Below the pieces are notes generated by a model. The model was not told where the DNA came from. It saw only the letters and a program-made list of their open reading frames with translations, and did not search any database. Shown one piece after another: positions 727-61,994 of a stretch of 64,000 nt of DNA. The translations under genes were made by a program, and so were the position numbers. Source of the DNA: Rhizaria sp. SCN 62-66 (Eukaryota); the NCBI GenBank assembly GCA_001724265.1, contig MEDY01000093.1, positions 1-64,000 of the forward strand, written 5' to 3'. Each line of letters starts with the position of its first letter. Position 1 is the first letter of the stretch.

Positions 727-2190
727 ATGGCTACTTTATTGTGGTATGGGTCTTTCTATATGGCGCTTGCGGACTTGATGTCAACCGCGACGGCGCTTGC
801 TGGAGTTCAAAAACTGAAGTAGCTCAGTGCGACCGAGGACAGCGACAGGCCGGGGGATATCGCGGCAGCGTGCCTCGAACACGGCGTGCTTGACTGGCTT
901 CTACAGTCATTGGAGTACTCCGCTGACGCAGACGAGTTCGATCGCTTGATGGAAACGCTCTCAGTCCTAGTCAACCTGTCCATCGCGTCTGGGGGAAGCG
1001 CCGCGCTCATTCAGTGTGGCGCTCCGGAGAAGCTGTGTCGTCTGCTCAACCTTGACCAGCCGGATGAGGTTATCAACAACGCGCTCTGGACGGTATGCAA
1101 CATTTCTAGCGAGAGGGATGAGTTTGCCCTCACGCTCATCGAGCGCGGCGTGTTCTTTCACGTGTGCCAGTATATGGCAGAGTTATTCGACGATGACGCC
1201 GTCGAGGTTCACGAGAACGTGCGCGCACTTCTCTTGCAGGTGGTGTCTCAGTTTCTCCAAGTAGAGCCGCCGCTGCGTTACAGCGTCACGGCGCCGATTG
1301 TGCCGCAGCTTGCGTCCGCACTGCGCTACTTTTCCAGCATGTCGGATCAAGAACAAGCACTCACAGATACGCTGTGGTCACTGTTGTCGGTCTTCAATGC
1401 TCAGAGCGAGGGCGTGCGCTTCGAGGACCTTCTGTCCGGTGGTGCCAGCAGTCTCTTGACCGCTGCGCTTGAACTGTTGCCCCGGAGCAGCGCGACGTGC
1501 CGGCCCGCGCTGCTCATCGCCATCGAGGTCGCCGGACTTGGCGGCGAGACGCTAGAGCGCGTCTTCACGCCGTTCGTGCTGGCGCATCTGCGGCAATTAG
1601 CTATCGTGATAAATCAATTTGAAGGTAACTTACTGAACGATTTGCTGTCACTGCTGTCGGTTCTGACGAGTGATGCGCCGGAGATGGTGTTCCGTGTGCT
1701 TGAGTCGAACGTGCTGCAGAGGCTCATGCAGCCCTTGCCCGCACTGCAGCGCGGCGGCGATGCGTCGGGCGGGCTGTGGCTTATGGTGACCGAGCTGTCG
1801 TGGGTGCTGCTCAACGTGGTGACCACGTCCGCGCAGTAGGACGGCGACCAGGAATATATGGCGAGTGCACTGCTCGACGCTGGCGTCGTGCAGTTCTGTG
1901 CGCACGCGCTGGATGCCGCAGCTGCTGCGTCATCGCCGCCGCCTGACAAGACGCTGAGCCGGCTGCTCCAAATCGTGCATGCAGTGCTTATGCTTGGCGA
2001 GTCGGGAGCAAACGCCGCCGCTCAGGCCGAGGGCGCTTAGCGCCGTAACGAGTTCCTGGTGGCGTTTGTCGCTGCTGGCGGTGCTGCTGCTCTGGAGGAG
2101 CTGATGAAGAATGAACAGGCCTGTGCCGACGCGTTGGATGACGCCATTGAGCTGAAAGAGCTGATGGAACAGCTCTTGGAAGAGCAATGA
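727..2190 (+). CDS. ARM-repeat protein, divergent importin-alpha-like; contains 3 in-frame TAG codons
   Basis: One frame runs from ATG 727 (alternatives 760, 778) through TAG at 820-822, 1837-1839 and 2038-2040 to TGA 2188-2190. It joins track ORFs 886..1839 and 1858..2040 plus a tail (RRNEFLVAFVAAGGAAALEELM...LLEEQ). ARM-like motifs: NALWTVCNIS, LTDTLWSL, ELSWVLLNV. The start is uncertain and an upstream exon is possible. Confidence 0.7.
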
Positions 2191-2798
2191 CGCATAGTTT
2201 GTCCATACAGGTGCGGGATAGATGCCAATGCATACCACAATTTCGACATCGGAACTCAATTTTATAACTAAAGTAGTATAGGGTAGAAGCGGTACTCTAA
2301 ATGTAGATTTTGTATTTTTAATGTTTAAACAAGATGTTTTATTGTTGAATTCGTCTGCTATTTTAAGTTGATTGTGGTCACTGTGCGAAGTGAGCGCGGA
2401 GTTGCAGTAATAGATGAACAGTGCGTGCGTTTTTCTCCTTATTTCCGGAGTTATTGTTTTTATTCACTTGAGTCTTTACAGTTTGCGAGATGTACAGTAC
2501 ACTCGCCAGCTTGTTGTTGATGCTTTAATACGATTCGTCTGTGCGACTTCAAGTTGATCCAACTTAAAGAAAAGTTGTCACTTAATTTGAATTGACACCA
2601 GAATCCAATATTATGAGAACATCTTTGTGTTGTTTTGATATTTTCGTTATTGCATTCTATGCGATATTTGATATGATATAAGCTCTGACCGTGAATCTTC
2701 TGTGGTGTTCTGGATAATGCTTTGCTAGACCCAACAAGCGTTGTGCTTCATTCACGAGCTCATAGACTTGTGAAGGAACACTTCTCTGAGTTAAAACA

Positions 2799-4178: not shown

Positions 4179-4400
4179 CCTGTAACAACGCAGGTCCGCT
4201 GCGGACCCATGTGATGTTCAGTTATCATCGAAAAGACGAATTGATAAGGCCAATGTATGTATTATTCCAACAAACAGACACACACCATACACGACAAGCA
4301 CTAAATAAGTGTCAAATCACACACATGAACTCTAAGTAAATGGAGATCGCACACACACCACCATCTCTTGTAGAGTCCTGTTCCTCGCTACGCTCAAGCG

Positions 4401-11514: not shown

Positions 11515-14500
11515 TCAGCCGTTGATCGCGTAGACCGTCTGATCCGCCGCGCTCACGCTGGCCGAGTTCGACGCACTGCTGCCATAACTCGCGTGGGCGT
11601 TGGCGGGCTTAAAGGGCGACGGTAGCGGTCCCGCAGACATGCGCCGCGCCGCGCCGGGCACGGCCGCCATCGCTCTAGGCAGAGCGGCCGCACCGGAGCT
11701 GTGACTGGCGCGCACGATGATGTTGGTGCCGCTGAGCTCGTGCGTCGCGTCGAGCAACGGCGCCGTGTACCCGCCGTTGTTGCCGCCGCTGTTGTTGCCG
11801 TTGGACGTGGTGGTGGCTGTGGCGTCTGCGATGAGTGTGGCGGCACGTACAACGGCGGAACCCACGAGCACATGTCCCGTTGCGGCGGCGGCGCGCGCGG
11901 CGCCGGGTCCCACGCCCGCGAGCGCGCGCGCTTCGTCATGCGGCACGCGTGCGGCCGCGCGGGCGCCGTCACGGTGCAGGTACAGACGCAGCTGCACCAC
12001 TGCGTCTGTGGTGCTCGCGGCGGAGACGGGCAGAAGGACGTGGAGCGGGGCGGTAAAGCGCACGAGCGCGCCCAGCGCGGCCGCGCTCGCCACGGGAAGC
12101 ACCTCAGATGTGGCGACAAACCGCGACGACGATGCCGCCGCCGCCGCCGCCGCCGCGGCCGAGGACAAGCCACTATTACGGTCGTGGGCGACGATGGCGG
12201 CGACGAACACGGAGCAGGGTCCGGCGGCGGGGTCAGCCGCAGTCCCGTTGGCATCACCGCAATCGCTGTCGGCGGCCAGCGCGGCGGCCAGCGCGGCCGC
12301 GGGGTGCTGCAGCGCCAGCGCCAGCGAAAGCTCCTGCTGCGGCTGCTGCTGCGGCTGCTGTGGCTGCTGCGGCACGACGACTGGGACAGGCACAGTGGGC
12401 GCACCCCACTGCGCGCGCGGCAACGCAGAAGTGGAGGCCGAAGCCGAGGACTGCGAGCGAATGAAACGCGCATTAGAGCCACCGGTGTTGTTGCCGTTGC
12501 CGCTGCCACTGCTGGAGAGTGAGAGCTCGCTCATGTCCATCGCCGTTGTCGCCTGCATCTCCGTCTGCGCCTGCATCTGCGGAAGCATCTGAATCTGCGC
12601 CTGCGTCTGCGGATGTGTCATGCGCGGCGTCGCCGAGCGCGGGGTCGAGGGTCGCGGCGGCGGCACAGGGCGCCCGTCCGCCGTCATAGCGCCTGCTGAG
12701 GCGCCTGCAGCGAAGGCGGCGGCGGAGGCGGAGGCAGTAGCGGCGGTATAATCCGCGGCCTCGGCGAAGGCGTTTCCGAGCGCGCGGGGCATCGCGGGCG
12801 ACGGCGGCGGCGAGCGGCCGCGCGGTGCGGTCGCGGACAGATTGATCGTCGCCGAGGGTGGCGCGAGCTGGCCCGTGGACGGCGCGGCGGCCACGGCCAC
12901 GGGGGTGGGCTTGTAGACCACAGGGCCAAGCGCGGGGGAACTCACACGCGAGGACGGCCGCGACGGGGGCCGCGAGGGCGGCCGCGAGCTCACTGAGCCA
13001 GACCGGGAGAGACTCGGACTGCTGCCCAGCAGCAGGGAGCGTTGCGCCTGCGGCGTGTGTCCGCGCGGCGCGGCGGCGTAGGACGCGTTCGCGCTGCCGA
13101 AGCTGCGGTCGCTGGCGCTGCGCTCCAGGCCCTCCGGCACAATCGGCACCAGTGATGCGAGCGGCGAGAGCGGCGCTTCTGCGGTGATCTGGCGGCGGCT
13201 GGGCGACAGCACCCTCGCGGCGGCCGAGGGCGACGCGGGCTCGCCGCCGCGGGCGTCCGCCAGCCGCTGCTGCTGCTGCAGCACAAACTGCGTGTTGAGC
13301 AGCTGTTGTGTGCCCCACTGCTGCTGGCGCGCGGCGGCGCGCGCGGCACGCTATGCTGCGAGCCCGCGCGCGCTCGCCTCCTGCGCGGCCTGCTGCTGCG
13401 CCATGAGCTCAGCCACGGCGCGCTCGCGCTGCGGGCGCAGCACGGCCTCCTCGGCGGCCGCCTGCGCCGCGGCGGTCGCGGCCGCGCGTGCGGCGTTAGC
13501 GGCGGCCGTGGCGGCGGCGATGTCGGCCTGCAGCGAGGCTTGCGCGTCGCGCTGTTGGAGCTCCGCGGTCTTGGCCTCGCGCACAGCGGTCAGATAGCCC
13601 GCCGCAGCCGCCGCAGCAGCCTGGGACGGGCGCGCGTACGACGCGGGCGTCAGTGCGTAGTTCACCGGCTGCGGCTGCAGCTGCTGTTGCTGTCGCTGTT
13701 GCTCTGAGGCGTCCATAGCGCGCGGGGACGGCAGCGGGCGCACGCCGAAGTGGAAAGACGCGGCCACGGGTAGCGGCGGCGAGCGCGGGCGCGCCAGCGG
13801 CGACAGCGGGCCCTGTGGCCCCATCATGATGCCGTTCCCCGTGTGGGGACCGTAGCCGTAGCTGCCGTAGCCCTGGCTCAGGCTCTGGCCGCCGGGGGTG
13901 GGCGCGGCGGGGCGGTCCTGGCTCTGCGGCGCGGGGCGCGGGGAGCCGACACGCGAGCCCTCGGGAGAGTGGAACTCGTCCTCCTCGTTGCCGTCGCCGT
14001 CGCCGTTGCCGTGCGAGGACGAATGCAGAAAGGCCACGGCGCGCGCGGCGGGGTGGGCGTCGCCGCCGCGCACGGCCGCTGGACGCGCCAGCGCCACCTG
14101 CGGCGACCCAGAAACAGCGGCAAAGCGCGGAGAGAGGCTGGGGGAGCCGGGGCGCTGCGACTGCGGCAGGGCGGGCGCAGCGGAAGAAGTTTGGGCAGCG
14201 GAGGAAGCTGGCGCAGCGAGAGGAGCGCTGTAGGGCGTGAGGGGCGTGTTGAGGGGCGTGGCGGGCACGGGGATCGACGTGGAGCCCTCGGTGGTAAATG
14301 ACGGCCGGCGCGCGGCCGCGGCTAACGCAGGTGCAGGCTCAGCGCGTGCGGCGGGTTCGTAGCGGGCGAAGACAGGGGAGCCGGGGCGTGAGGGGGGCGG
14401 CGCCTGCTGCGAGAAGGCGCCCGCGTACACTGGCGAGCCGGGGCGCGAGAGCAGTGCAGCGTCCGTCGCGGCGCGCACGGCTGTAAGCCGCTGCTGGTCG

Positions 14501-14880
14501 GCCTAGCGCGCGGCACGCAGGGAGGCGATCTCGACGCGGTGCGTGGCGGCGCGCGCCTCGGCTTCCTGCAGCGCGGCCGCGAGCGTGTGCTGGCTGGCGT
14601 GCGCGACCTCGAGCTGTAGCTGCAGCAGACGGATCAGATGCAGCACGCTCGCCGGGTCCGCGGCCGTCAGCTCGGCCTGCGTAATGTCACAGAAGGCGAC
14701 GTGCGCGGCGGCGTTATGCAGCGTCGTCACGTCGGCGGTCATGACTGTGCGGTCCAGGTCCAGGTTCGACACGAAGACCCAGTCCAGCGGGCCCTGGCGC
14801 CTCCGGAAGCGGATCGAAGACCGCATGGCGCCAAGCCATGGTGCGGGCGGGGTTCGAAGCGCCTGGACAATGTCTTGCAT
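11515..14880 (-). CDS. DZIP1/Iguana-like N-terminal domain protein with long low-complexity tail; contains 2 in-frame TAG codons
   Basis: Track ORFs 14503..14880, 13351..14478 and 11515..13284 share one frame, separated only by TAG at 14505-14503 and 13353-13351. The N-terminus (FRRRQGPLDWVFVSNLDLDR...VAFCDI...LIRLLQLQLE...SQ) resembles the Dzip-like N domain. TGA stop. Confidence 0.7.
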
Positions 14881-21658: not shown

Positions 21659-24600
21659 ATGAGTGAAGCACACGGCCAGAGCCGTGTGACATTTGCATCC
21701 GATGCATCACAGCTTTTATCGAGTCGCCAAGAGGGCTTCGGCCCGGCCGCTCCGACTTCGACCGACTTGTCCGTACAGCCGCGCCTCTCTATTTCTAACT
21801 CGGCCTCGAGTACGACTGGCGTCTTGCTACCGCAACACCACACAGTGACGATTAACACCCCCGTTTCTGTCTCCGCCAGCGGCACGGGCGGCAGCGGTCG
21901 CAGCCGGAGCTCGGCGTCGGGCACTCTGCGCCGACGCTCGGGCCGAAGCAAGTCTCGCGTCGCGCCCTTCGGCAGCCCGAAGATCTCGAAGAACCGGTTC
22001 AAGTTCCGCCGCCGTCGAGGCTTTACGTCCTCGACCTCTTCGTCTGGGTTATCCACGTCCACGTCGTCATCGTCCTCCTCCTCTTCATCTTCGTCGTCGT
22101 CTTCGTCCTCATCGTCGTCGTCGTCTGACTTCGACTCGTCTTAGTCCTCGGCCTCAGGCTCAGACGACACATCCTCCTCCTCCGGCTCCGACGCGGAGCC
22201 GGACCTGGCGTACGATGACGTGTCCGCCTTCTGGACGCACGGCAGCTTTGACCCGCGGTACTACTCGCAGCACTACGGCGGCGGCGGCGGCAGCCACTAC
22301 CACGGCCAGGGCGGCGCGCACGCGTGGTACTTTCCCCAGGGCGCCGCGGGCGGCCCGCAGTTCGACTCCACGGCCGGCGGCGAGTGGCAGGGCCTGGCCA
22401 TGGCGCGCACGCAGGCCGCCTACGCGCAGGAGATTGACGACGCGTACCACGGTGTGCGCGGTTTGGTTCGCACAGAGCGTCCGGCACCCGTCGCCTGGCG
22501 TTCCACGTGGGCGCGCGTCAACAAGCCGTACGAGATTGCACGCTTTCTCTGCCAGCTGGGGCTCGTCATCGCGTTCTTTTACGTCATCACAGCCGCCGCG
22601 GGTGGGCACCTCATCTTCGAGCGCACCGCAGCCAAGGGCCTCGCGTCGCGGTTACTGCCGGAATCACTTTCATCGCTGCGGTCCTTCGACGGGTCAGAGC
22701 CCGTGCTGACGCCGACTCAGATGCGCGAGGCTGCGGAGACGATGACAACGGTCTATTACGCGCTAGGCGACGCCGTGGAGCGCTTCGTCTACCACTTGCC
22801 CGCGGACCAGAACGTGGTGTCGTGCGTGGTGGACCACCGCAACGGGTCTTCGGTGACGTACGCGCTCTACGCCGACGACCTGGGCCCCTTCCAGCAAGGC
22901 GGCGGCGACCTCGCGCGCTGGCTGCAGAACTCGGACATCGCGGTCATCACGCTTGCCTTCGAAGTGCAGGCGCATCTCTTCTTCGGGCGCCGCTACTGCA
23001 TCGAGTGGGGCGCGCAATACGTCGTCGCCGTCGCGCCCAAGGCCGCCGAGGCGACGGGCCGCCTCAAAACCTCGGTCACCATGTGCAGCGAGGGTCCGCG
23101 GTCGGCGGGCGTGACCGAGATCGACGTCATCAACGTCGTCGTCACCGCGCTGTCTTTCGCGCTCTTCGCCATCTACATCTCCGTCCTGGGCAAGACGGCC
23201 ACCGCGTTCAAGCGATACGTCTTCGCGCGCATCTGCCCGCGCGCGGCGCGCCGAACGCGTTCCCCGCGCGCGGCGCGCACGACTGCCGCGGCCGCGGCCG
23301 CCGACGCGGCCGCTGAAACCGCCGCCACCGCGGCCGCCAACGCCACCGCCGCTGCGGCCGCGGCCGCCGCAGCTGGGTACGCCGCGCATGACGCCGGCGC
23401 GTACTTCCCGCCCGAGCTCGGCGACGGCACATTCACTTTTGGCCCCGTGAATGCGAATGCGGTCAATCCTGCTGCGCCAGTGGCGCAGGAGCCGGTGCAG
23501 CGGCCGCGCAGCCGGGGCGGGACGTTCCGCTCGGGGCTTTCGGTGCAGCAGACACCGACTGCATCCGCGATGGGCGCCGCGAGTGACGACGACCACGACG
23601 ACTCCGGGTACGACCACGACGACCTAGACGATCTCGACGACGATGACGACGACGGCGCGTCGCTGAATGCGGGCGGCACGGGGTGGACGCGGCACGTGCG
23701 GCTGCGCGACGACGCCGCCAACGCCGCCGCGGCCACGGCCTCGGAGTCGGCGCTCGCCGCCGCTGCGGGCGGCTACGATGACGACGGCAGCACGTTCGGC
23801 TCGATGACAGCGCGTGCAATGGTCGATAGCGACGACAGCGACGACGACCTCGAGGGCTTCGGCGGTGCGCGCGCCCGCCGCGGGCCCGGGCGCGCGTTCG
23901 GCGCGCGGTCTCTCTCCGCGGCGGCGGCGGCTCGGCCCGCGCGGTCGCAGGTGCCGCAGCACATGCGCGCAGAGCTGGAGCGCGAGGCGAGCGAGGCCGA
24001 GGCCCTGGCTGTGGCCGCGGCGTCCTCCGCTCTCGCGGCCGCTGAGCGCGCCGACGAAGAGGCGCGCGCGCCGCGGCGGCCGCCGTGGAGCACCGTGGTC
24101 GCGGCGGCGCGGACCGAGCTGACGGTGGCGCACCTGGTGCAGGCGCTGTCGATCTCGCTCAATCTGGCCTATTCGACGCTGTCGTACCGTGAGCACCACA
24201 CGTTCGACGCTCCTGTGGACTCTGAGTCGATCCGCCTGCTTTTCGCCTTTGCCGCGGCTACAGCGTCGATGATGCTGCTGCCGTCGCTGTCGCTGCTGCC
24301 GTACACGTACACCGTGTTCCAGAACACCATGATCACGGCCACGCCCTCACTGGTGCGCGTCCTTATCGGCGCGCTGCCCTTTTACTTCGGATTCACATTT
24401 TTCGCCTGGGTAGTCTTCGATAAGTACAGCGCGCGCTTCCAGTCTTTCAACTACGCGGCGACGAACCTGTTCGCCGTGATGAAAGGCGACAACATCCTCG
24501 CGCTCTTCAACGAGCTCGCACACGCAGGTATCGTCGGTCGAGTGTTTCTGTACTCGTTCGTCATCTTCTTCACACTGCTGCTGTACCGCCTCATCCTCGC

Positions 24601-27562
24601 GCTCGTCGGCTTCTTTGTGCTGTTACACCAGCCTGAGGTGCACACTGACGGCCACCTCACCGGCGTTGACCGCATTGCCGCTGACATCGCCGCAGACGCC
24701 GCCAAGGAGCGCAAGTTCCGCCGCCGCGAGCGCCGCCGCCGCCAGCGCCGCCGCCGCCAGCGCCGCCGCCGCCACCAGCAGCACGGCTCCAGCTCTTCGT
24801 CGTCATCATCGACTTCATCTAGCTACGACTCTGACGCGGACACGGACTCGGATGACTCCGGCACGCACACGTCTGACTCTGAGCTGTCGAGCATGACCGA
24901 GAGCTTTGGCGACTCCCGCGGTGACCGCGACGGCAACGGTGCGCCGCCCGCGCTGGCCCGCGTGCAATCGAGCTACTTGCCCGCGCCGCCGATGCCGCTG
25001 GCGCTGCCGCAGCCGCAGCCGACGCCGGGGCCCGGGTTGATGCAGCCGACGCCCACATTGCCGCCGACGCCGCGCGGGGGCGGGACCAGACTCTCTCGCG
25101 CGCCCTCAATGTCCGGCTTTGCTCCCGGCGCACTGTCGTACGGACAGATGCCGCCGATGGGTCCGATGGGCTCGCAGATGCCGGCCGGTGCCAAACCGCC
25201 GCTGGGGCAGAACAAGTTCTCGCTCGCGCCGGCCGCGTCTTTCACATCCGCGGGCTTTGGTCCTATGGCCGTCGCCGCCTCGCCGGCCGGCTCGTACTAC
25301 GGGCCCGGCAGCGCGCTTGCGCAGCACCCCGCGGGCTCTTACGCACCGGACACAGGCGCGCTCGCGGGCTCCGTGAGCTACGGGCTCGGCGGCGCGTTCC
25401 AGCCTGTGAGCTCGTTTGCCTCCTCAGCGGGCTCGTTCATCCCTTCTGGTTCCTTCGCCCCGTCGGGCTCGTTCGCGCCTCTGGGCTCGTTTGCACCGCC
25501 GATGTCGTTCGGACCCGCGGGCTCGTTTGCCGCGCCGCCACCGCCGTCTCCGCTCGCACAGTCCCAGTTCCAACAACAACAACATCAGCAGCAGCAGCAG
25601 TTCCCACAGCAGCTCCCATTTCCGCAGCAGTTTATGCACGGTACCGCGCTGGTGCCCATAGGCCAGCCGCAGCCGCAGCCGCAGCCGGGTTTGCCGCCGC
25701 TCGCGCCTGCGATCCAGGGCGGCCGCGTGCACCCACTAGCGCAGCAGTATCAACAGCTGCACGCGTCAACGTCGGTGTCGCCGCCCACGCTGCCGTCGGT
25801 CTCCCCGTCCGGCACGCATGGCGGCGACGGCGAGCCCACTGCCGCAGTGACCGGAGCCGCGGACGCGTGGGACGAGGACGATGAGCTGGACGCGCTGGCG
25901 GCGTTTGCGGACGACGCGGACGACGACGACGACGGCGGCGACGACGCCGACATCGCTGGCGTGCCCGTCGGCGCATTCGCCCCCGCCTTGGGCCCCGGCC
26001 GCTCGCGCTCGCGCGCGCTGGGCCTTATTGGCAGCGGTGGTGAGACGCCGAAACGCGGCGTGACCCCGCGTCGGCGCCCGCCCGCGGGCCGCGACTCGAC
26101 CCCACAGCCCGGAGGCGACCGTGGCGGCGACCGGTCGGGGTTGGGCGCAATCCCGCCTCCGCTAGGCCCTCAGGCGTCGCAGTCGCAGTCTGCCGCTCAA
26201 CCAGGGCAACCAGCACTGATGTCGCCACAAGGCCCGATGTTGTCGCGCAGAGCGTCGATCGCGTCCCCCGCGGACCCTGGCGAGTGGACACCAATGCACC
26301 CGCAGCAGCACTTTCTCCACATGCAGCAGCAGCAACAGCAGCAGATGCAGGCGCAGCAGCAAATGATGGGGATGCCGCCCGACATGCCGCCGATGCTGGG
26401 CCGCTCAATGACGCTTCCACTTGGCCCGCCGGGGCTGGGTCAGGGCGTGTTCTTCGTGCCGCCCGCGCTGGCGTCGCCACAGGGCACGGTGCGCGGTGAC
26501 GGGCGCACACACCGCAAGCAGTTGCGTGGCCGCACTGTGCGCAAGCTGTGGACGTGGCCCAAACTCACGGCCGATGAATGTGTGCGCTACTTCGCCACTG
26601 CCGCCGAGGACAACGCCGCCGCTGCAGCCGCGCGCGCCGCCGCAGGTTTGAGCGCGCTGGTGGAGGCTGTGCCGGCGGAGCGCGCGACGTCGCTGTCGCG
26701 GCTGTGCGGACTGGGCGCTCTCGACGGCCCTGTGGCGCCGCTGCTGACGCTGCTCGACCGCACGGGCTCGGAGTCGCTGCACCGCCTTGCGGGCGGCCAC
26801 GCCGAGCCCTTCAACCTCACGGAGCTCTGGGCCGCGCTGCGCGAGCGCCGTACGAACGACAAGCGCAAGCGCGTGCAGACGGCTGCGGCGACGACGGCGG
26901 CGGCGGCGGAGGCTGCGGTGGGCACTCCGAACGAGGAGTCCACCGCGGCCGCGGCTGCGACTGCCGCGGCCGCGCTGGCGGCGTGGAGGGAGCGTAAGCC
27001 GCGCAAGCAGCGGCGTCCGCGTCCGCTGGCACTGTCGCTGGCGCCGATGATGGTGCAGCTCAACTGTCTTCACGTGGCGCTGTGCCTCTACTTCTTGACG
27101 TTCGACTTTACGCGGCGCCTCGCGCTCGTGATGCACCGGCTGCGGCGCCAGCAGAGCACCGACGGCGGCGCGCCCAGCGTTGCGGCCGAGCTGCTCGCGC
27201 AGTACAAGACCAAGGGCTGGACGCGCGAGCACACGGTGCCGTGCGCGCAGTCGCACCGCTGTCTGCTCTGTGTCGTATCGGGCGTGTACCAGGACCTGGT
27301 GGCGACTTTCTGGGGCCGTCTCGAGCGCAAGCTTGTCCGCTACCTGCTGCAGCCGATCGAGTTGCAGCAAGACGAGGACTTGCCCGCGCTCACCACAGTC
27401 ACCACTTACCGCGTCGGCCGCGCCATTGACCAATACATCGACGAGCGCGTTGATACCGGCGGTCCGCCTGTAGTTGCGACAACGACAACGACGACGCCCG
27501 CTATCGCTTTGATCGAGGAGGCACCACAGAGTAGTGCGTCACCAAAGCTAACTCTGGCTTAA
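21659..27562 (+). CDS. Mucolipin (TRPML)-like cation channel with large low-complexity insertions; contains 1 in-frame TAG
   Basis: Track ORFs 21659..22144 and 22220..27562 are in one frame, separated by TAG 22142-22144. The S5-pore-S6 region (PSLVRVLIGALPFYFGFTFFAWVVFDKYSARFQSFNYAATNLFAVMKGDNI..GRVFLYSFVIFF..LILALV) matches the mucolipin pattern. TAA stop. Confidence 0.75.
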
Positions 27563-34203: not shown

Positions 34204-35373
<1,170 letters not shown>

Positions 35374-38700: not shown

Positions 38701-41700
38701 CATGAACATGAACACGAGCGTGATGGCGATGAGCACGAACATGATGCTGTTGACTTGGAGCAAGAGGCTGCAAGGCAGGCTGCAAAGACGCAGTACCACG
38801 AGAGCGATAGCACCAAGACGTCGGCGTCCGATAATGCTTCCGACAACAAACCCGCAACTACGAGTGAGACTATTCGCGCCACTGAGCCCAAGACCACCGC
38901 GGCCGCCGAGGCGGAGGAGCAACCCGACTCTGCGACTGCGTACGTGCGCGGCCTGGGCCGCGGCTCGCGACTGTTGAGCGCGACCCCGCTGCCCGCGGGC
39001 GGCGCCGTCGTCGCCACCGCGCGCTCGCGCGACGGGGAGTGGTTCCTTGCCATCACGCGTCAGTTCGCGCCGATCGACGGCCCTTACACAGGCGCTGTTG
39101 GTGAGCACCCACCGTACGCGCTCACGGTCGTGCGCTTCTTCCCCGAGACTTCTGCGCGCGCGCGGTCGCCGCTGGTGACGACGGTGCCGCTGGCGGGGCT
39201 GTCCGGCGCGCCGACCGCGCTGGCGGTGGCGGCGACGCCCGTGTGTGCCGACTCCGCGTGTGCGCCGCTGTACACCCACCAGGCCGTGCTTCACGAGGCG
39301 CTGGGCGCGGCCACTCTTGTCGCAGTGCCTTTCGTGCTCACCGCCGCCGCTGCCGCGGATATCGCCGCAGGAGACGCCGCGACGAGAGACGCTACGCTGG
39401 CAGTGCGCGTGGCGCCCCCGCGCGTGTGGGTACGGTCTGGCCCGCTGGAGCGCGGCGCCGTGGCGTGGCTGCCGCCCGACAGTGCAATGGGCGATTTGAC
39501 CGTCGACGCGCTCGTGCCGGTCACCAGTGCCGTTGCTGCGAACTTGCCTGGGATTGGCCACGCGGTCATTGCCAGTGAGAAGATCGCCGCTGTCACCACC
39601 GACACAAAGTACGTCGCATAACTGGCTCATCGTGTTTTTAAACTCTGGTGTATTTGATATAACCTCACAATGCTATCTTTATTTTCTATTTTATCACGAT
39701 TTTTTTTCTAGCATTGACAACACGCTGTACCAGCAAAGCGTGCACGTATATTCGTTGCAGCTGACCGTGGCACCCGCTGCGATGCCACTTGACGCTGCCG
39801 CAGCGTACACACAGGCACAACGGCTTGACATCGACACGATTCACGCGCCCAGCATGGCCTCCTGGGCCTGGGCACCCGCTCTCAGCAACACAACAATGAA
39901 CTCAAACAACATGAGCGCGAGTTGTGTGAACGAGACGGTGATGTCACGCTGGCGGCGTATCGAGACTGTACTCGTGCTTTCGCCGCGCGCAACACCCGCG
40001 TTGCGGCGGCCGGGCCGCGTGGGCGGTCTGCCGCTGCCCGCGGTGCTCTCCGCGGCCGCGCCCGACGCCGCAGCGACGTCTGTGATGTTGATCGGCACGC
40101 AGATGCTCACGCTCGACAGCGCGCGCGAGACGCGTCCGCTCACGGTCACCGCGTCGGGTCCCCAGGCGGGCTCCGAGGAGGCCGATGACGCGGCGGCGGC
40201 GGGCGACGACCCGGCGTCGTTCGTGGCTGCCGCGCTGTCCGCGCGCGGTGACATGCTCGCGCTCGCTGACTCCAGCTCCACCATCGCGCTGCTCTCACGG
40301 CCCGCGATTGTGCCGACGCCGCGCGCGCGGGCCGCGCGGGGCCGTCGCCGCGGGCGCGCGTTGGAGCCGACGGGGTGGCGCGCGCGCGAGCTGCGCGCGC
40401 GCGAGCTGCGCGCGGCGCGGCTGCCCGCGGCGACGCGGCTGCGCGGCGCGGCGGGCAGCGCGAACGGCGCGCTCGATGCCGCGCGCGATGCTGTTGCCGG
40501 TGCGTGGGCCGCCACGGCCGCGCTGGCCGAGGCGCAGCGCGACCTGGCGATGCCCGGGGCGCTCACGGGCTATGCTGAGCTGATCGGCGGCGCAAGAGGC
40601 GTAAGCACCTATGCTCAGGACGGCGAGGGCGACTATGAGGGCGAGGATGAGGATGGCGCAGTGGCGACAGCCCCCGCTGGAGCAGTGCCTTCGACGCTGC
40701 GACCCCCAACCATGCGCAGTGACACCGGCAACAACAGCAGTGAGAGCGCTAACGTCTTCCGCGCGCACCCGCTGTCCGACGGACGCAACCTGTTCCACTC
40801 CTCCGGCGCGGCCATGGGCGAGCTCGCGCCCGACGCCGACGCGACTGCCGCGGCGGCTGCGCCTGCCAGCGCCCTGGACAAGCGGCGCGCGCCGGCGTGG
40901 AGCGTGCACTCGCAGCTGCAGCTGCCGCCCGCGCTGCGCGGCCACCGCCTGCGCGCGCTGTGGCTGCTGGAGACCACGGCGCAGCCCGCACTCCGCGCGC
41001 TACCGGCCCCCGCGGCGCCACTGACCTCCACAACTGTGGTCGCGTTCACGGCCGAGGGGCTTGTCACGGCGTTCGACCTCACGCCCGCGCTCGACACACC
41101 CCCGCGCCGCGCGTTTGCGCCCGTCGCCGCAGCCGCTGCGCCTTCGCTGCGCGCTGCTGATAGCGCTGGTTCCGCTGGCGCCGGTGTGGCTGTGCAGCCG
41201 GCGCTGGACGCGTTGCGCACACGCTATCCATACACCACATTGCCGGACCCTGCTTTCTCAACACTGCCCGCGCCTGATGTTTCCACCACAACCGCACCCG
41301 CGATCGGGACTGGGACAGAGACAGCGAAGGGCAAGTCCAATAGCGCTGTTGGTGCTGTAACTGCGGCCGCCGACGCCGCCGCTGCTGCTGCGCGTCGCGC
41401 TCCTACGACAGGGATGCCCGAGGACGGTCTGTGGCTGCCGCGTGCAGTGACGCCGCTGCCGCTGCCGTGCTTTGCGCTGCTTTCTTGGGTGCGCGCGGGG
41501 CAGGACCCCGAAGCCCAGCTGCTGCCGCTGCTGCCCGCGTGTCTGCTCGCGTCCTGGGGCGGGATCCTGCGCCACGTTCTGCGCACCGCCGCAGGCACCG
41601 CGCTGCGCGGCAAGCTCGCCGCCGTGCCCGCCGCCTCGGCGCGCGCGCTGCGGCTCGCAATGCGCGGCGCGCTGGCCCGTCTGACGCCGCTCGTCGCCGC

Positions 41701-42676
41701 GCTGAGTCCCGACGAGTCCGCGACCACTGCGACGCGCGTGGCGTGGGCTGTGCACGCTGCGATGGCGCGAGCGGGCGAGATCGCCGGTCCGGCCTCGGCC
41801 GCGCCCGCGCGCGCACTCGCCCGCGCGCGCGCGGGCCACGGGTTCTTCGCCGAGGGCTGGGGACTGCTGGCGTGGCTCGACTGGCTCGCCGCGTGGGCCG
41901 GGTTCGCGCTGCCCGCGCCGCCCACGGCCGAGGACGACGGCATCTACGCGCGCGCAGTCGCCGCGGGCGAGACACCCGCGCTGCCCACGGGCGGCTGGGC
42001 GACGGAGGATCTGGCGACCGCACTGAGGGAGGCGCTGGACGCGATCGGGCCAGACACTGCCGGCAGCGCGGCGGATGGGTTCGCGATCAACTTCGTGTAC
42101 ACACCCGAGGACGACGACGCGGACGCTGACGCGGACGTCATGGCCGACAGCGATTTGGGCCTGGGCGCTCAGAGTCAAAGCCAGGGCGCGGGTGTGACGG
42201 GGCGTGGGCGCGGTCACACCAGTCGCGGACAGCAGCAGGAGACTGAGCGCGATCACGACGGCGGCGACGACGACGAGGAAGACTAGGAGGCCGCGGCCGG
42301 ACTCGTGGCGCGCGCGCTGTCGACCGCAATGGGCTCGATGATCGGCGCGTTCGTGCTGTTCGTGCTCGCGTCCTCAGTCGCCGCGCTGTTGCCGCACCGC
42401 CGGGTGCTGCGCAGGCTCCAGGGCCGGCCGGACGAGGAACCCGCTGCCGCTGCAGTTGCCGCTGCTGCTGTTGTTGCACCCGCTCCCGTTCAAGCTGCTG
42501 CTGTGGCTGATGCTCCTGCCTCGGATGCTGCTGCGGCCCCCGCTGCTGGTGCGGCTGCAGAGGAAGAGGAGGATGGCGCTCTCCGTGCTAGTTTAAACGA
42601 TGATGATGGCGCACATCTTGCGCTGGGTGAGAGTGAATACGTGGCCTCGATTACAATTGAGTCGCATGAGCTGTAA
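35733..42676 (+). CDS. Large hypothetical Ala-rich membrane protein (~2240 aa), 3 exons; contains 1 in-frame TAG
   Basis: Exons 35733-35843, 35950-39608 and 39712-42676 join in frame (both donors GTACGT). TAG 42284-42286 precedes an in-frame predicted TM helix (MIGAFVLFVLASSVAALL). TAA stop, followed by AT-rich DNA. Confidence 0.6.
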
Positions 42677-47344: not shown

Positions 47345-47368
47345 GTGCCCTCCGCACGCGCTGCTCCC

Positions 47369-48495: not shown

Positions 48496-50943
48496 ATGGA
48501 CCCGCAGCAGCCCGTCGCCGCTGCCGCCGCCGCCGCCCCGGCGCCCGCGGCTCCTGTTCCGATGCAGGACGATCCCGCCGTGAAGCTGGAGGCCGCGCTC
48601 GCCGCCGCGCCCGCGCCCGCCGCGCCCGCGGGTGAGGTGAAGCCTGAGGTGAAGCCTGAGTCCTCCTCTTCGTCGTCTTCTGCCTCTGCCTCTGCTTCGT
48701 CCTCTGCGTCCGCATCTGCTGCTGCTGCGCCGACGCCGTCGCGCCCGAAGCGCGCGCTGGACGCGTCGTCCTCCGACTCGGACTCGAGCTCCAGCTCCAG
48801 CAGCTCGGACTCGGACTCTTCCTCGTCCTCGGACTCAAGCTCGGGCTCCGACTCGGACAGCGACAGCTCAAGCTCCAGCTCGGACTCGGACTCGGACTCG
48901 TCGAGCTCCAGCTCTGGTTCGGACTCGAGCGACAGCTCCGACAGCAGCGACAGCTCTGACTCGAGCGACAGCTCCGACTCAAGTGACAGCTCCGACAGCA
49001 GCGACAGCGACAGCTCCGACAGCAGCTCTGACGACGACAGCTCCGACTCCGACTCCGGCCCCCGTGTGAAGCGCTCCAAGAAGGCCGCGGCGGGCAAGAG
49101 CAAGAGCAAGGACGCCAAGAAGAAGAAGTCCGGTGGCAAGAAGGAGAAGAAGGAAAAGAAGAGCCGCCGCAGCGAGTCGATGGTCGGTGACAGCGAGATC
49201 TACCCTCCCACCAAGTACGAGCGTCTGACTGAAATCAAGCCGCTTGAGCCGTCTAAGGGCGCGAACAAGTGGTGGGCGCGCGCGCTATCGAGCGACGTCA
49301 AGTGGGAGACGCTGGAGCACAACGGCATTCTCTTCGCGCCCGACTACGTCCCGCACGGTATCAAGATGCGCTATGCCGGTGCTGAGGTGGAGCTGACGCC
49401 CGAGCAGGAGGAAGTCGCGACTTTCTACGCTGCGATGCTCGAGACAGACTACATGACCAACGCGAAGTTCAACGCGAACTTCTTCGCGGACTGGCAACAG
49501 CTGCTGGGCCCCAAGCATGTGGTGCAAAAGCTCTCCGAGTGCGATTTCACGCCCATCAAGCGTTACCTTGACGCCGAGCGTCTTCGCAAGATCGAGGAAC
49601 GCAAGACCCCCGAGTTTAAGAAGGCCGCCAAGGAGACCAAGGCCCGCCTCGACTCGATCTACGGCTTCGCCATCGTTGACGGATTCAAGGAGAGCACCGC
49701 CAAGTACTCTGTCGAAATCCCCGGTCTCTTCCGCGGCCGTGGTGGACACCCTAAGACCGGCAAGATCAAGCGCCGCGTGATGCCTGAGGACGTGATCCTC
49801 AACATCGGCCGGAACACGCCGATCCCCAAGTGCCCACTCGAGGGCCACGACTGGAAGGGCATCATCCACAACGACAAGGTCACCTGGCTCGCTTACTACC
49901 GCGACCCCATCACCAACGGCTACAAGTACGTCTACTTGGCGTCGTCGTCGCGCTTTAAGGGCGAGTCTGACCGCAATAAGTACAATAAGGCGCGTCGTCT
50001 CATCACGCACATCGACGCCATCCGCGCGTCCTACACGCGCGACTTCTCCAACGCGGACCGCGGCGCGCGCCAGCGTGCGACGGCGGTGTACTTGATCGAC
50101 GTGCTCGCGCTGCGTGTCGGCAACGAGAAGGACACCAGCGAGGAGGCTGATACCGTGGGCTGCTGCTCGCTGCGTGTGGAGCACCTCGCGTTCAAGGAGG
50201 GCAACCGCGTCGAGTTTGACTTCCTCGGCAAGGACTCGATGCGGTACTTCAACGAGGTCGAGGTGCACCCGCTCGTGTTCGCCAACCTGCAGGAGTTCTG
50301 CAAGGGCAAGGCGGGCACGCGCGACGTTTTCGACGCGCTTAACACCAGTCAGCTCAACGACCACCTCAAGTCCTTCATGCCAGGGCTCTCCGCTAAGGTG
50401 TTCCGTACGTACAACGCGTCCATCACGCTCGAGAAGGAGCTCCGCGAGGGCTCCAAGGACGTCTCCGTGTCTGACCTCACGGCCGTCAAGGAGCAGTTTT
50501 ACACCAACGCTAACCGCGAAGTGGCGATCCTGTGCAACCACCAGCGCTCGCTGCCTAAGGGCCACGAGACGCAGATGGCGGCGCTGGACGAGCAGCTTGC
50601 CAAGGTGCGCGGTGAGATCGCGGCGCTCAAGGGCAAGGCCGAGACGTTCGGCGAGAAGAAGCTGCCTGCGGATCGTGCAAAGCGCACTGAGATGGGCGCC
50701 AAGCTCGAGATGCGGCTCAAGAACATGGAGGCGAAGCGTGCGATGAAGGATGATAACAAAACGGTGGCGTTGGGCACGTCCAAGATCAACTACATGGACC
50801 CGCGCATCACGATTGCGTGGTGCAAAGAGAAGGATGTGCCCCTCGAGCGCATCTTCAACCGTTCGCTGCTGTCCAAGTTTCCGTGGGCCATGGAGTGCCC
50901 GTCCACGTGGCGCTTCAACGACCCCGAGCTCCGCGATATCTAA
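48496..50943 (+). CDS. TOP1: DNA topoisomerase IB
   Basis: KWETLEHNG, PGLFRGRG.HPKTG, LALRVGNEKD, DTVGCCSLRVEH, FLGKDS, AKVFRTYNAS, VAILCNHQR, and catalytic SKINYMDPRI. Ser/Asp-rich N-terminus. TAA stop. An upstream exon is possible (acceptor at ~48489). Confidence 0.97.
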   Translation: MDPQQPVAAAAAAAPAPAAPVPMQDDPAVKLEAALAAAPAPAAPAGEVKPEVKPESSSSSSSASASASSSASASAAAAPTPSRPKRALDASSSDSDSSSSSSSSDSDSSSSSDSSSGSDSDSDSSSSSSDSDSDSSSSSSGSDSSDSSDSSDSSDSSDSSDSSDSSDSSDSDSSDSSSDDDSSDSDSGPRVKRSKKAAAGKSKSKDAKKKKSGGKKEKKEKKSRRSESMVGDSEIYPPTKYERLTEIKPLEPSKGANKWWARALSSDVKWETLEHNGILFAPDYVPHGIKMRYAGAEVELTPEQEEVATFYAAMLETDYMTNAKFNANFFADWQQLLGPKHVVQKLSECDFTPIKRYLDAERLRKIEERKTPEFKKAAKETKARLDSIYGFAIVDGFKESTAKYSVEIPGLFRGRGGHPKTGKIKRRVMPEDVILNIGRNTPIPKCPLEGHDWKGIIHNDKVTWLAYYRDPITNGYKYVYLASSSRFKGESDRNKYNKARRLITHIDAIRASYTRDFSNADRGARQRATAVYLIDVLALRVGNEKDTSEEADTVGCCSLRVEHLAFKEGNRVEFDFLGKDSMRYFNEVEVHPLVFANLQEFCKGKAGTRDVFDALNTSQLNDHLKSFMPGLSAKVFRTYNASITLEKELREGSKDVSVSDLTAVKEQFYTNANREVAILCNHQRSLPKGHETQMAALDEQLAKVRGEIAALKGKAETFGEKKLPADRAKRTEMGAKLEMRLKNMEAKRAMKDDNKTVALGTSKINYMDPRITIAWCKEKDVPLERIFNRSLLSKFPWAMECPSTWRFNDPELRDI
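48760..49055 (+). repeat. Ser/Asp low-complexity coding repeat (DSS/SD) in the TOP1 N-terminus
   Basis: About 100 residues, almost all S and D, with repeated gactcg/agctcc/gacagc units. Confidence 0.85.
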
Positions 50944-51452: not shown

Positions 51453-53823
51453 TTACGCGCTCTCAGGGAACTGGAGCGCGAGCGAGTCCGCAATGAGCGC
51501 CTCAACACCGGCGGCGTCAGAGCGCACGGGCAGCGTGGGCACAATGGGCAGTGCGCCCTCAGCACCAGCCTCAAACGCCGCCGCGGCACGCTTGATCGCG
51601 CGTTCCGCCTTATCGTTGCCAGCCCACGCGCGGCGCGCGACGCCGTTGTTGACGTCCCAGAACAGCATCAGACGCGCCTTGGCGGCCGCGTCGTCGGTGC
51701 CGTCGAGAACGAGGCCGAAGCCACCGTTGATGGCCTTGCCCCACCCGGTGCCGCCGCCGTTATGGAGCGCGACCCACGTCGCGCCGCGCACAGCGTCGCC
51801 GATGCAGTTTTGCACAGCCATGTCTGCGGTGAACTTGGACCCGTCGCAGACATTGCTGGTTTCGCGGAACGGCGAGTCCGTGCCCGACACGTCGTGGTGG
51901 TCGCGCGACAGCACGACGGGACCGTGGAGGCGGCCTGACTTAACGGCGGCGTTGATCGCACCGGCAATAGCGGCGCGCCCGGCGGCGTCGGCATACAAGA
52001 TGCGCGCCTGTGATCCGACGACGAGATGATTCTCCTGCGCGGCGTCAATCCACAGGATGTTGTCCTTGAGCTGGCCCCGCACCTCGCCGTCGCCCTCGCA
52101 GGTCAGCAGCCCCTTGAGTACTTCACTGGCGATGGAGTCAGTCGCGGCGAGGTCCTCCGCGCGGCCAGAGGTGCAGACCCATCGGAACGGACCGAAGCCC
52201 ATGGAGAAGATGTCTCCCATGAACTCCTCCACATAACTCGGGTACTTGAACGTCACGTTTGTCTCCGTGACGGCGTCGCCCGCGCGCGCCGCCGGGAGCG
52301 CGATGTCGGCGCCCGCGCGGAACGCTTCGAGCAAGAACGAGTTCCCGTAGTCCCAGAAGCGCGAGCCCCGGGTAACGAGGGCGTTGATCGCGGTCACCTG
52401 GCGGCGCAGAGAGGCCTGAACAGCGGCCTTGAACGCCGCGGGGTCGGCCGCCATGAGCGCGTTGGACTCGGCGAGTGTGAGCCCGGTGGGGTAGAAACCG
52501 CCGTTGTAGGGGTTATGCAGCGAGGTCTGATCCGAGGCCAGGTCGATGAGGTTCTCACCAGTGGCGGCGGCGTCGGCGGCGAAACGCTCCCAGACGTCAA
52601 CGACGTTGCCCAGATAGGCAAGTGCAACGGCTTCGCGGCCGGCGCGAGCGGCGCGCACGCGCTTGACCAGCACGTCCAGGCACGTGATCTGTACGTTCAC
52701 GCAGAAAAAAACAAGAGAAAATCAAAATATGGAATTAGATGTTGCAAAAATAACCTGATATAGTCGTTATTTACATAAAAATAGGATTTGTCATGACGTG
52801 TGATAATTTGAAACGAATATCATGATTAACATCAGAATCATGACAGTTAATAACGATCAGCAAACAAGAATCGTGATATATGGGTTTGGTTTTTTGCGGT
52901 TTGTTTCATATTCGCCATACCTTCTCGGTGACCCATCCCTGCGCGTGGCGCTTATCAAGTGCGTTCTCATCTATCTCAGCTATCACCGTGACAGCGCCGC
53001 AGATCACACCGGCCTTGCCCTGGGCACCGGACATGCCGCCCAGTCCGGACGAAAGATAGACCTTGCCGGCAAGCGAGGTGTCCGGGTCGCCAGCGCCGAG
53101 GTACTTGCGGCCTGCGTTGAGGACCGTGAGCACCGTGCCGTGCACGATGCCCTGGGGGCCGATGTAAGCGAACCCGCCGGCGGTCATCTGGCCGTATTGA
53201 GTGACACCCATTGCGTACATGCGGTCGTAGTCAACCGGGGTGGAGGCCATAGGGACGACCATGCCGTTGGTGATCACGAGGCGCGGGGCAGAGGGCAGAG
53301 ACGCGAAGAGGCCCTGCGGGTGGCCTGAGTTGAGCACGAGCGTCGAGTTCTCGTCGAGGCGGCAGAGGTAGTGCATCATGAGCCGGTATTCGGCCCAGTT
53401 CGAGAACGCGGACCCGTTGCCGCCGTACGTCACAAGCTCTTCGGGGAACTGCGCGACGGCGGGGTCGAGGTTGTTCATCACCATAAGCATCACGGCCTTG
53501 GCGTGCGCGTGGCGACCGGGGTAGCAGGAAATGGGGTAGGCGCGCATGGCGTACTCATTCGGCATGTACCGGTAGCAGTAGATGTGGCCATACTGTTGCA
53601 GCTCGGCGGCAAACTCGGGCGCCAGCACGGCGTGGTGCTCGGCGGGGAAGTACCGCAGGATGTTGCGGACGGCCTGAATGAACTCGCCGCGCTGCAGACC
53701 GTGCTTGCGGACTGGCGCGTGGGGCACGCCCGGCGAGCGCGTGCGGGGCGGGGGAAGCACGGAGAGATCCGCGGGGAGGCACTTGGCAAGCAAGGCCGTC
53801 ACGATGGCTTGGTCGAACTCCAT
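51453..53823 (-). CDS. UROC1: Urocanate hydratase (eukaryotic long form), 2 exons
   Basis: Exons 53823-52921 and 52688-51453. Motifs: NNLDPAVAQFPEELVTYGGNG, YGQMTAG..YIGPQGIVHGT, GLGGMSGAQ, SDQTSLHNP, RDHHDVSGTDSPFRETSN, HNGGGTGWG. TAA stop. Confidence 0.96.
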
Positions 53824-59300: not shown

Positions 59301-61994
59301 TTGCGCGAGGTTTGGGCCGGCAACTACCCATTCTCGACCTCGTGCGGCGACTACGTTTTCTCGGGACACACCGTATTCATGGTACTCTGCTCGCAGTTTG
59401 TCACAGAGTACTCGTCCCCGAAGCGTTTTGCCGTGTTCCACCGCCTCATGTGGAGTTTCACGCTGCTGGGCATCGTGTTCATCGTAGCGACGCGGCTTCA
59501 TTACACAATCGACGTGCTCATCGCATTCATCCTCGCCGTCTCGTGCTGGAAGTTCTACCATCATGAGAGCGACCGTTACCACCAGCGTCGTCTGCGGCAT
59601 AAGCACACGCTCGAGGTGCGCCGCGCGCGCGAGGCCGCCGCGGCCGCCGCCGCCGTCGCCGTCGCCGCCACCGCCACGGCCGAGTCCTTCCACCACCCCA
59701 ACGCGCCCGGCGCCGCTGCCGCGGCCGCTGCGGCTGCGGCCTCGGCCTCGGCCGCCGCGCTGGCCGCCGCAGCCGCAGCCGCCGCCGCTGCGGGCGCGGG
59801 CGGGGACGGGACGCCGCTGTTCGGCGCCCTCAGCACCACAGCGGGCTACCCGGCGCCCAAGTACTCCGGCCTCACCTCCGCCTCGGGCCCACTGCCGCTG
59901 CCGAACGCGACTCCGACTGCGTCGAGTACTGGTGCGATGCCCGCGCTCGCGCTCGCCACGGCCACGGGCACGGCGCCGCTGCTGGGGGCCGCAGGCGGCG
60001 CGGTCGCCGGCGGCAGCGGCGTCGGCGGCTGGGGCGAAACCGACGCGGAGACCGCTGACGCGGCTGCTGGTGGGGTTGCGACCGGCCCCAGGCCGTCGCC
60101 CCTGGCGGGGCCTGTGACGTCTCTGCCTGCGCATCTGCAACCGTATGCGCACCAGCTGCAGCTGCCGCAAGACAACGATCACTACGCTCAACAGCAGCGG
60201 CAACATCAGCAGTACCACCAGCAGCATCAGCAGCAACAGTATCAGCAGTATCACCAACAGCAGCAGTATCAGCAGCAACATCAGCAGTATCAGCACGGCG
60301 CGCGCGTGGTGGTGCCGCTCTCACCGCCTGCTCCGTCGCCGCCGCTTTCCGCCAGCGCGCCCGCGACAGACGCCGCCGCCGCCGCCGCTGCTGACGCGGC
60401 TGTGAACAGCGCGGGGCACGACTCGGGAGTGCCGCAACTGCAGTCTCTGTCGCTCGCACTGACTCCCTCTGCGGGTATCATGCCGCACGGGAGCTCGGCC
60501 TCTGGCTCTCTGATGTCCAGCTCACCACATGCGCACGCCACGACTGCGGTGACGCCGCATTTAGCCCCGCCCGCCCTGAGCGCCGCGCCGTCGTTCGCGC
60601 GCACCACGCCGCCCATCAGCAACCGGACTGGCGTCATGAGTCCCAAGGGTTCCGGCGGTGCGCTGCCGTCGGGCGCCGTGGTGACCGTGTCGCACATCGT
60701 CGCTGTGGCCATGGTCGCCGGCGCAACCGTGCTCACGGTCAACCACCACGAAACCGTCGAGTTCCCGTACGCTACGGCCGCCGCAGCCGCCGCGGCCGCC
60801 GCGGGCACTGCTGCGAATGCTGGCGGGCAACAGGGCGCAGGTGCGCTGCCGCCCGGAACCCCCGCGGCCGCTGCGCTGGCGCTCCGCAACAGCAACAGTA
60901 ACAACGGGGCCGCGGGGAGCGCGACTGGTAGCGGCGTTGCCGGTGCGGCCACTCCCGTGCTGTCCGCAGCGGCCTCGGGCTCAGCCGCTGTCTCCGGCGC
61001 TGACGGCGTGGCCCTACTAGGCCCTGCCGGCGGTGATCACCATAACTACGGTCACATTGCGAGCAACCGTGACTCTGGCGCCGACAGCGACGGCGGCAGC
61101 ACAGGCGCTGCGCACGATAACGTTCGCCACGCCGCGCGTCCCTCTGCACCCCGCCCCGCTACTATGGGCGAGACGGGGGGCATCTCTGCACACGCGCACC
61201 GCGAGCGGCTGACGACGCGTGCTCGCGCGCTGGCCAGCTCCGGCGCGGGCACTGGCGACGTGGGATACGGCGACGCCGACGGCGACGACGGCGACGGCGA
61301 AGGCTTCCCCTATGGCTACGGCTACGGCTACGGCGACGCGGATGCGCCAGTGTGCGGACTGTGGGTGTACTGCGGCGTGTGTGTGCGGCTGGTCGCGGTG
61401 GACGCCGACTCAGTCGTGCCGGTCACCGCGGTCGCGCCCCTCCCGGGCCCCGCGCCAGGGCCCACGCCTGCGCCGGTTTCCGCGATGGTGTCGTTCGCGG
61501 CCAGCCCGGCATCGGTGAACGCCTCGGCCGCCGCGTCCCCGATGGCGCCCTACGCGACGACCACAGCCACGACCGCGACCGCGCCAGTGTCGGCGTCGGC
61601 GTCGGCGGCGGGTCAGTACGGCTTGTCGCTGCACGGTCAGTCCGTCGCGCCCGTCGGGATTTAGGCCCCGTTGCTCGCCGTGCCGCCCTCCGCTGCGCCG
61701 GGCTCCAACAGCGGCAGTCGCAGTAGCAGTAGCGGCGGCGATGTGGCGGCAGCGCTGACTGCGGGTTCCGTTCCTGTGGCGGTGCCTGCGCCGGGGCTGG
61801 GGCTCTCGGCCGCGGCGGCCAGCGCGCTCGAGGCCGAGTTGCGCGCCAATGAGCGCGCGCGCATGTTCATCGAGGCCGCGCAGCGATCGCGCAGCGGTAG
61901 CAGCAGCAGCGGCGGCGCCGACGCCGCGACTGGCGCAGACGAAGAGCTGATGGCGACGCGGCCCGGACGCCTTTTCTCGGGATTCACCTTCTGA
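56367..61994 (+). CDS. Sphingomyelin synthase-like protein embedded in long low-complexity arms; contains 1 in-frame TAG
   Basis: The core (~58915-59570) has the SMS motifs PLPD, RRW..VRGICILVTALP, CGDYVFSGHT and HYTIDV. TAG 61662-61664 is followed in frame by the 61671..61994 ORF ending in TGA. Confidence 0.85.

Follow-up and report, generated by a model that had tools for sequence, protein, structure and literature searches.

Probable use of UAG as a sense codon, with UAA and UGA kept as stops, in a GC-rich eukaryote of wastewater and bioreactors

Does the eukaryote that carries contig MEDY01000093.1 translate UAG as an amino acid, and if so, does UAA still end its proteins? The question is raised by positions 1 to 64,000 of that contig (the window below, 64,000 nucleotides in all), in which a preliminary description had found TAG codons inside otherwise open genes and had proposed that UAG alone has been reassigned. 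At the scale of the window this proposal is supported by homology, by base composition and by codon statistics, and we consider it likely that an uncultured, GC-rich, intron-bearing eukaryote of wastewater and bioreactors decodes UAG as sense while terminating at UAA and UGA.

Results

The eight TAGs first described, spread over five genes, are every one in frame, six on the plus strand (820-822, 1837-1839, 2038-2040, 22142-22144, 42284-42286 and 61662-61664) and two on the minus strand (14505-14503 and 13353-13351). They are the only in-frame stops in 17 gene models comprising 15,283 codons, which contain 0 TAA and 0 TGA, in agreement with the earlier statement that these genes have no internal TAA or TGA; the two off-phases of the same models hold 26 and 27 TAG, 10 and 66 TAA, and 207 and 286 TGA. 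In-frame usage of TAG in the window amounts to about 0.5 per 1000 codons.

Direct homology across these codons comes from the Arm-repeat gene (PF00514; 727..2190, plus strand), which starts at ATG 727 within a 492-codon open reading frame (ORF) beginning at 712, ends in TGA, and contains three TAGs, at ORF codons 37 (TAG 820), 376 (TAG 1837) and 443 (TAG 2038, 49 codons ahead of the TGA). With phmmer, 1.84 billion representative proteins were searched exhaustively and gave 30 matches of the Arm family, three of which (P0006, P0022 and P0024) are this gene's own pieces, split at the TAGs by gene callers. The homologue P0007 (523 aa, 45% identity) aligned with Arm residues 12-481, its R, N and E standing opposite the three TAGs without a gap, and tblastn alignments with three metagenome loci (L002-L004; 42-45% identity) likewise crossed the TAGs without a gap; opposite TAG 820, all four have R. 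The equal lengths at the TAG positions exclude tiny introns. In an alignment of 24 homologues (A2), a residue is present in the columns of TAGs 820, 1837 and 2038 in 9, 16 and 18 homologues, respectively; the first of these columns is variable (R, R, R, T, D, E, F, L, T), and the second holds five D, two each of R, A and V, and one each of N, G, E, P and F. Downstream of TAG 1837 the gene has the family motif LLDxGAxxYCAQxL, and directly downstream of TAG 2038 it has PRNxFLAAFxAAGG, the most conserved motif of the family.

The TAGs are genuine DNA and not assembly errors. In a DNA run from an independent study (X3), contigs cover 600-2580, 12214-13520 and 13522-20599 with 0 differences from the window; a contig from X4, a run of 2025, spans 600-1598 and departs from the window at one position, 663, outside TAG 820; and a metagenome contig (L001) carries the Arm gene with all three TAGs as in the window. 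No difference at a TAG is listed for the X3 and X4 contigs.

We trained a codon model on 11 gene segments without TAG and compared all six frames with it; frame 0 came first on either side of the TAGs by margins of 11 to more than 200 nats, the exceptions being the sequence before TAG 22142 and, with a weak lead, that after TAG 61662. A second score, which sets coding sequence against a model of the organism's own 3' flanks, was +13 to +47 nats over the 49-60 codons past each of the eight TAGs and -26 to -70 nats over the 60 codons past each of 18 TGA or TAA ends; the negative values are partly built in, because the flank model was trained on those flanks, but the positive values are not. In the 100 nt past the TAGs the GC fraction is 0.61-0.75, as compared with 0.31-0.60 past 17 TGA or TAA ends, so that the two sets are disjoint (one-sided Mann-Whitney, p = 4e-5), and the GC-rich, coding-like continuation claimed earlier is found past all eight. 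By the coordinates, the next TAA or TGA in frame past a TAG is 50 to about 1,800 codons away; the flanks past real ends are AT-richer, and 16 of 17 have an in-frame stop within 5-89 codons. We also considered the TAGs as parts of introns and rejected this, the one verified intron having 31% GC over about 230 nt as against 49-80% GC around the TAGs.

With TAG taken as sense, 13 of 18 gene models end in TGA and 5 in TAA, and a multi-exon diacylglycerol acyltransferase (DAGAT) gene probably ends in TAA as well; these counts replace the 14 TGA and 5 TAA ends given before. The companion claim, that no gene ends in TAG, stands numerically (0 of 18-19) once read-through is allowed, but as evidence it is circular, because read-through is presupposed and the standard code would give 4 TAG ends among 19 genes, a normal share. 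The earlier description also held TAA to be a true stop. The TAA of TOP1 (50941..50943, plus strand) lies 8 residues past the Topo_C_assoc domain and falls in the same alignment column as the C-terminus of P0038, a metagenomic relative with 83% identity; TAA thus functions as a stop, and in the window UAA is uncoupled from UAG. The TAA of the urocanase gene (51453..51455, minus strand) is followed in frame by TAA, TGA and TGA at +16, +21 and +23 codons, and all five TAA ends show an abrupt drop in GC and non-coding scores of -30 to -70 nats. At window scale, then, UAA has been kept as a stop, and the pattern is not that of a coupled UAR code like NCBI table 6, there being 0 TAA in the 15,283 codons and five genes that end in TAA. 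No TAG was seen to act as a terminator in the window, which is a small sample, and a conserved motif follows even the TAG that lies 49 codons from a gene end.

A second gene allows a comparison with a protein family. The Dzip1-like gene (11515..14880, minus strand) has two TAGs and a TGA end, and its match to PF13815 (Dzip-like_N; residues 31-143) spans codon 133, where the first of them lies (14503..14505). Read through, the match scores 69.0-70.0 bits and extends to profile position 114 of 118; cut at this TAG it scores 66.9 bits, the gain from read-through being small, yet consistent. The coding score downstream of the codon is +40.5, and at the second TAG (13351..13353, codon 517) it is +65 before and +47 after, with a downstream GC fraction of 0.73-0.78; in each of the gene's three segments, frame 0 leads by 30 nats or more. 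A search with residues 1-220 against proteins of similar length matched no homologue. The three Arm TAGs thus stand opposite residues of homologues, and a fourth TAG is covered by a Pfam match. Elsewhere in the Dzip1-like gene, at 12120-12330 and 13450-13620, where the sequence is of low complexity and rich in Ala and Gln, chimeric joints and loose ends pile up in several runs; these look like cross-matches of other organisms' GC-rich repeats, not like structural variants.

The remaining three TAGs lie one to a gene on the plus strand. A polycystin-like channel gene (21659..27562), with a weak PF08016 match below the cutoff and a TAA end, has TAG 22142 at codon 164 of its ORF. Because the next 60 codons are coding-like (score +41.8) and the next ATG is 86 codons downstream, read-through is favoured here, though the site is still uncertain. 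It is the least certain of the eight because of a competing minus-strand ORF (21532-22140, 202 codons, with an acidic run), which overlaps the Ser-rich N-terminal extension and scores slightly above the plus frame. In a gene of no assigned family (39782..42676, TAA end), TAG 42284 is codon 929, 129 codons ahead of the TAA; frame 0 leads by 36 nats, the coding score is +39, and the peptide that follows, as judged by eye, has a hydrophobic helix-like stretch and then basic residues. The PAP2_C (sphingomyelin-synthase-like) gene (PF14360; 56364..61994, TGA end) has TAG 61662 at codon 1799, 109 codons ahead of the TGA, with a coding-versus-flank score of +35 and a GC fraction of 0.75.

As to which amino acid UAG would encode, the posterior of a hidden Markov model (HMM) for the three Arm columns is E 0.21, K 0.14, R 0.13, A 0.13, D 0.08, T 0.07 and Q 0.06, with L at 0.015 and W, Y and C at about 0; relative to background, in log-odds, the foremost residues are Q, R, E and K. 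When 11 residues and X were substituted at TAG 14505, the Dzip-like_N score varied by at most 2 bits (Q 70.0, D 69.8, E 69.7, K 69.6, L 68.5, W 67.9). At these positions a polar amino acid (Gln, Glu, Lys or Arg-like) would fit best, and Leu and Trp would fit poorly.

Other members of the Arm family were encountered in these searches. The three copies L002-L004 (42-45% identity) are on short contigs from the metagenome that also yielded L001, and they are either paralogues or copies from sister species. A copy from another metagenome (L005, 1723-2815) has a TAG opposite W, a TGA opposite W, a TAG opposite L, frameshifts and 19 Ns, and is a pseudogene or a poor assembly. In L002, a TAG at 2269-2271 (codon 553 of an ORF from 613) lies in an acidic C-terminal tail; beyond it the frame is open for 41 codons (62% GC), as far as the contig reaches, and the 5' flank of the contig has 41% GC. 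It may be a ninth sense TAG, but frame 0 is best there by a mere 2.3 nats, and we did not count it. The homologues P0009, P0012 and P0014 start exactly where P0006 starts (Arm codon 60), with M for the V of GVxDWLL, and their genes may have an upstream in-frame stop, too.

The window as a whole is eukaryotic nuclear DNA with a mean GC content of about 64% (0.51-0.76 per 2 kb), in which genes are dense, use both strands and are separated by AT-richer DNA. Pfam matches identify, among others, TOP1, urocanase, a dual TKL kinase, an importin-like protein, a WD40 protein, a Rab GTPase, a short-chain dehydrogenase, a deaminase, an eIF2B-epsilon-like protein and a DHH phosphoesterase. The urocanase gene is interrupted by the verified intron, a canonical GT-AG one; the DAGAT gene (2790-4185, plus strand) has at least 2-3 exons parted by AT-rich introns; and an ORF at 17627-21202 (plus strand) joins two TKL-type kinase domains to a C-terminal PGDYG domain (PF14083). 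From what is known of their families, the Dzip1-like and polycystin-like genes suggest a flagellated stage.

Metagenomes of bioreactors, wastewater, activated sludge and microbial fuel cells, dated 2015-2025, contain near-identical DNA; 12 run rows from 7 studies carry part of the window, and 4 of them carry at least half of the sampled words. Among the matches listed, the nearest relatives of the TOP1 protein are metagenome proteins (83, 67, 61 and 60% identity), and the TOP1 proteins of named eukaryotes are at most 55% identical, most of them from plants (about 52%). A protein atlas yielded only generic clusters for TOP1. A search of genome contigs with the TOP1 alignment found only L006, a 39% match: its positions 218-1861 encode a eukaryote-type topoisomerase IB on a 2.3-kb contig, in a bin labelled uncultured Rickettsiales bacterium, where it may reflect contamination or gene transfer. 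Searches of genome contigs with alignment A1 and of viral contigs with alignment A3 found no relative of the lineage.

Discussion

We found that genes in this window continue through TAG in the same frame, and this continuity is, judged from sequence, a sign of translation through UAG or at least of selection for an open, codon-biased frame. By analogy with published codes of this kind (excerpts of PMC5304391 and PMC11687900), UAG would be decoded by a dedicated tRNA with the anticodon CUA, and the release factor eRF1 would have lost or weakened its recognition of UAG. Because the anticodon CUA pairs with UAG and not with UAA, the two codons can be uncoupled; UAG would then serve as a rarely used sense codon, with termination at UGA and UAA unchanged. 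No eRF1 gene is among the ORFs of the window.

Several observations weigh against this reading. ARAGORN found 0 tRNA genes in the window, and Rfam gave 0 matches. Direct homology backs only 3 of the 8 TAGs, all in one gene, and that gene belongs to a multi-copy family, in which a dead copy is conceivable. RNA-library contigs (X7, X6) map to the stretch, and among the pieces listed none bridges a TAG, which leaves room for editing of the mRNA. The stop counts are weak as well. Given the codon usage of the window, with its strong bias for G-ending codons, random nonsense mutations would yield TAG in 67% of cases, so that under a pseudogene model eight TAGs out of eight have P = 0.04-0.05 and the pattern is weak alone; likewise, the lack of in-frame TAA is uninformative alone, because only about 1.4 would be predicted if UAA, too, were a sense codon (CAA:CAG = 81:460). 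The Ser-rich sequence that precedes TAG 22142 has no clear frame, a reverse frame scoring higher, and this TAG may lie upstream of the true start. After TAG 61662, frame 0 beats the reverse frame by just 5 nats in the six-frame comparison. Finally, the Arm columns are variable, and four columns (three Arm, one Dzip) allow no decision on the amino acid. The case stands on homology, on frame-specific codon bias and on the composition boundary, not on stop counts.

The alternative that survives best, although we regard it as unlikely, is an otherwise standard code in which UAG is edited in the mRNA or is read through inefficiently by a near-cognate tRNA, and is thus ambiguous. A-to-I editing, which turns UAG into UGG (Trp), is known from sexual-stage filamentous ascomycetes. 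That TAG alone is affected agrees with such UAG-preferring editing, the RNA contig pieces listed leave every TAG uncrossed, and the rarity of TAG (8 of 15,283 codons) would suit an early or ambiguous stage. However, Trp is the worst fit to the homologous columns, with the lowest Dzip-like_N score of the substitutions, and TAG in 5 of 19 genes is by our estimate far above the known cases of editing. The most conserved motif of the family follows TAG 2038, a codon near the gene end, which argues against termination that depends on position.

It is less probable still that the genes with TAGs are pseudogenes of an organism with the standard code, or that the Arm gene is a dead paralogue. The Arm family is indeed multi-copy, as its 30 matches show, one member (L005) is clearly degenerate, and the mutation spectrum described above leans towards TAG. 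Yet this explanation needs 5 of 19 genes in 64 kb to have died through 8 nonsense codons without a frameshift, a TAA or a TGA, whereas codon bias and family motifs are intact past the TAGs and the TAGs are identical in X3 and L001, with TAG 820 in X4 also.

Two further alternatives are slighter still. One could envision that UAA and UAG are both reassigned, with UAA serving also as a terminator or with UGA as the sole dedicated stop, and given the G-ending bias zero in-frame TAA would arise by chance about one time in four; but five genes end in TAA with the loss of GC and of coding score already described, the TAA of TOP1 coincides with its relative's C-terminus, and reading past TAA adds 12 to more than 100 codons that are AT-richer and non-coding-like. 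A standard code, with the TAGs as real terminators or as parts of untranslated regions and the frames beyond them open by chance, could draw on the 158 ORFs of at least 150 aa over six frames in this GC-rich window, on the normal share of TAG ends that it implies and on the doubtful position of TAG 22142, but it can be dismissed about as firmly, since it is contradicted for the Arm gene by homologues aligned past TAGs 1837 and 2038 to the C-terminus, and more generally by frame-specific codon bias that is kept past the TAGs, the verified 3' flanks being AT-richer.

Reassignment of UAG alone, which we thus prefer, probably adds a further case to a type of code already described. In the rhizarian exLh (Sainouroidea), UAG encodes Leu and UAA and UGA are stops, as shown by 384 UAG in 71 genes at conserved Leu positions, and a tRNA with the anticodon CUA was inferred (excerpt of PMC5304391). 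The window resembles exLh in what appears to be a non-ciliate nuclear code with UAG alone as sense and gene ends at the other two stops, but UAG is rare here (8 in about 15,300 codons) and Leu is a poor candidate (posterior 0.015; 68.5 bits as compared with 70.0 for Gln). Iotanema spirale (Fornicata) reads UAG as Gln and still stops at UAA, according to the same excerpt; the likeness would lie in the reassignment of UAG only, with UAA kept, and Gln is among the best-fitting residues here. On the other side, the window has a urocanase, a TOP1 about 52% identical to that of plants, cilium-related genes and 64% GC. Iotanema is an anaerobic metamonad.

Phyllopharyngean ciliates have reassigned UAG to Leu or Gln in three origins, with a suppressor tRNA (CUA) in two genomes, and like the organism of the window they keep UAA as a stop, in their case the preferred one (excerpt of PMC11687900). 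In the window, in contrast, TGA is the commonest stop, the DNA is GC-rich and the intron of GT-AG type is 230 nt long. Ciliate genomes are AT-rich with very short introns, from which a GC-rich window with such an intron differs. In an oligohymenophorean ciliate, UAA encodes Lys and UAG Glu (excerpt of PMC10553269), so that the two codons differ in meaning as they do here, but both are sense there and TAA terminates here. Amoeboaphelidium protococcarum, in which both UAR codons encode Gln (as cited in an excerpt of PMC5304391), is a non-ciliate with a stop-to-sense code, as our organism appears to be, but UAA and UAG are coupled there, whereas TAA ends 5 genes here. A wastewater habitat would be shared with it. 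The lineage of Amoeboaphelidium is known from wastewater.

In full-text literature searches we found no report of a UAG-sense code for a wastewater eukaryote or for a GC-rich non-ciliate eukaryote. It is tentatively conceivable, with the balance slightly against it, that the window represents an independent, previously unreported UAG-only origin, in a GC-rich, non-ciliate lineage that recurs in wastewater and bioreactors and is without a sequenced named relative. UAG may be at an early stage of reassignment, still being a very rare codon, and the residue encoded may be other than the Leu or Gln of the other UAG-only codes, the columns favouring Glu, Lys, Arg and Gln about equally; a different amino acid or an independent origin, if true, would set this code apart from the UAG-only cases described.

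Because public gene callers cut genes at TAG, as they did the Arm gene (P0006, P0022 and P0024), the catalogued metagenome proteins of this lineage are systematically truncated. It is rare for a code to treat UAG and UAA differently: the excerpts of PMC5304391, PMC11687900 and PMC10553269 give one rhizarian, one fornicate, three phyllopharyngean origins and one further ciliate. Such codes inform the evolution of release-factor specificity and of suppressor tRNAs. If our reading is correct, the window adds a data point of another kind, a GC-rich non-ciliate with very low UAG usage, in which an early stage of codon capture could be on view.

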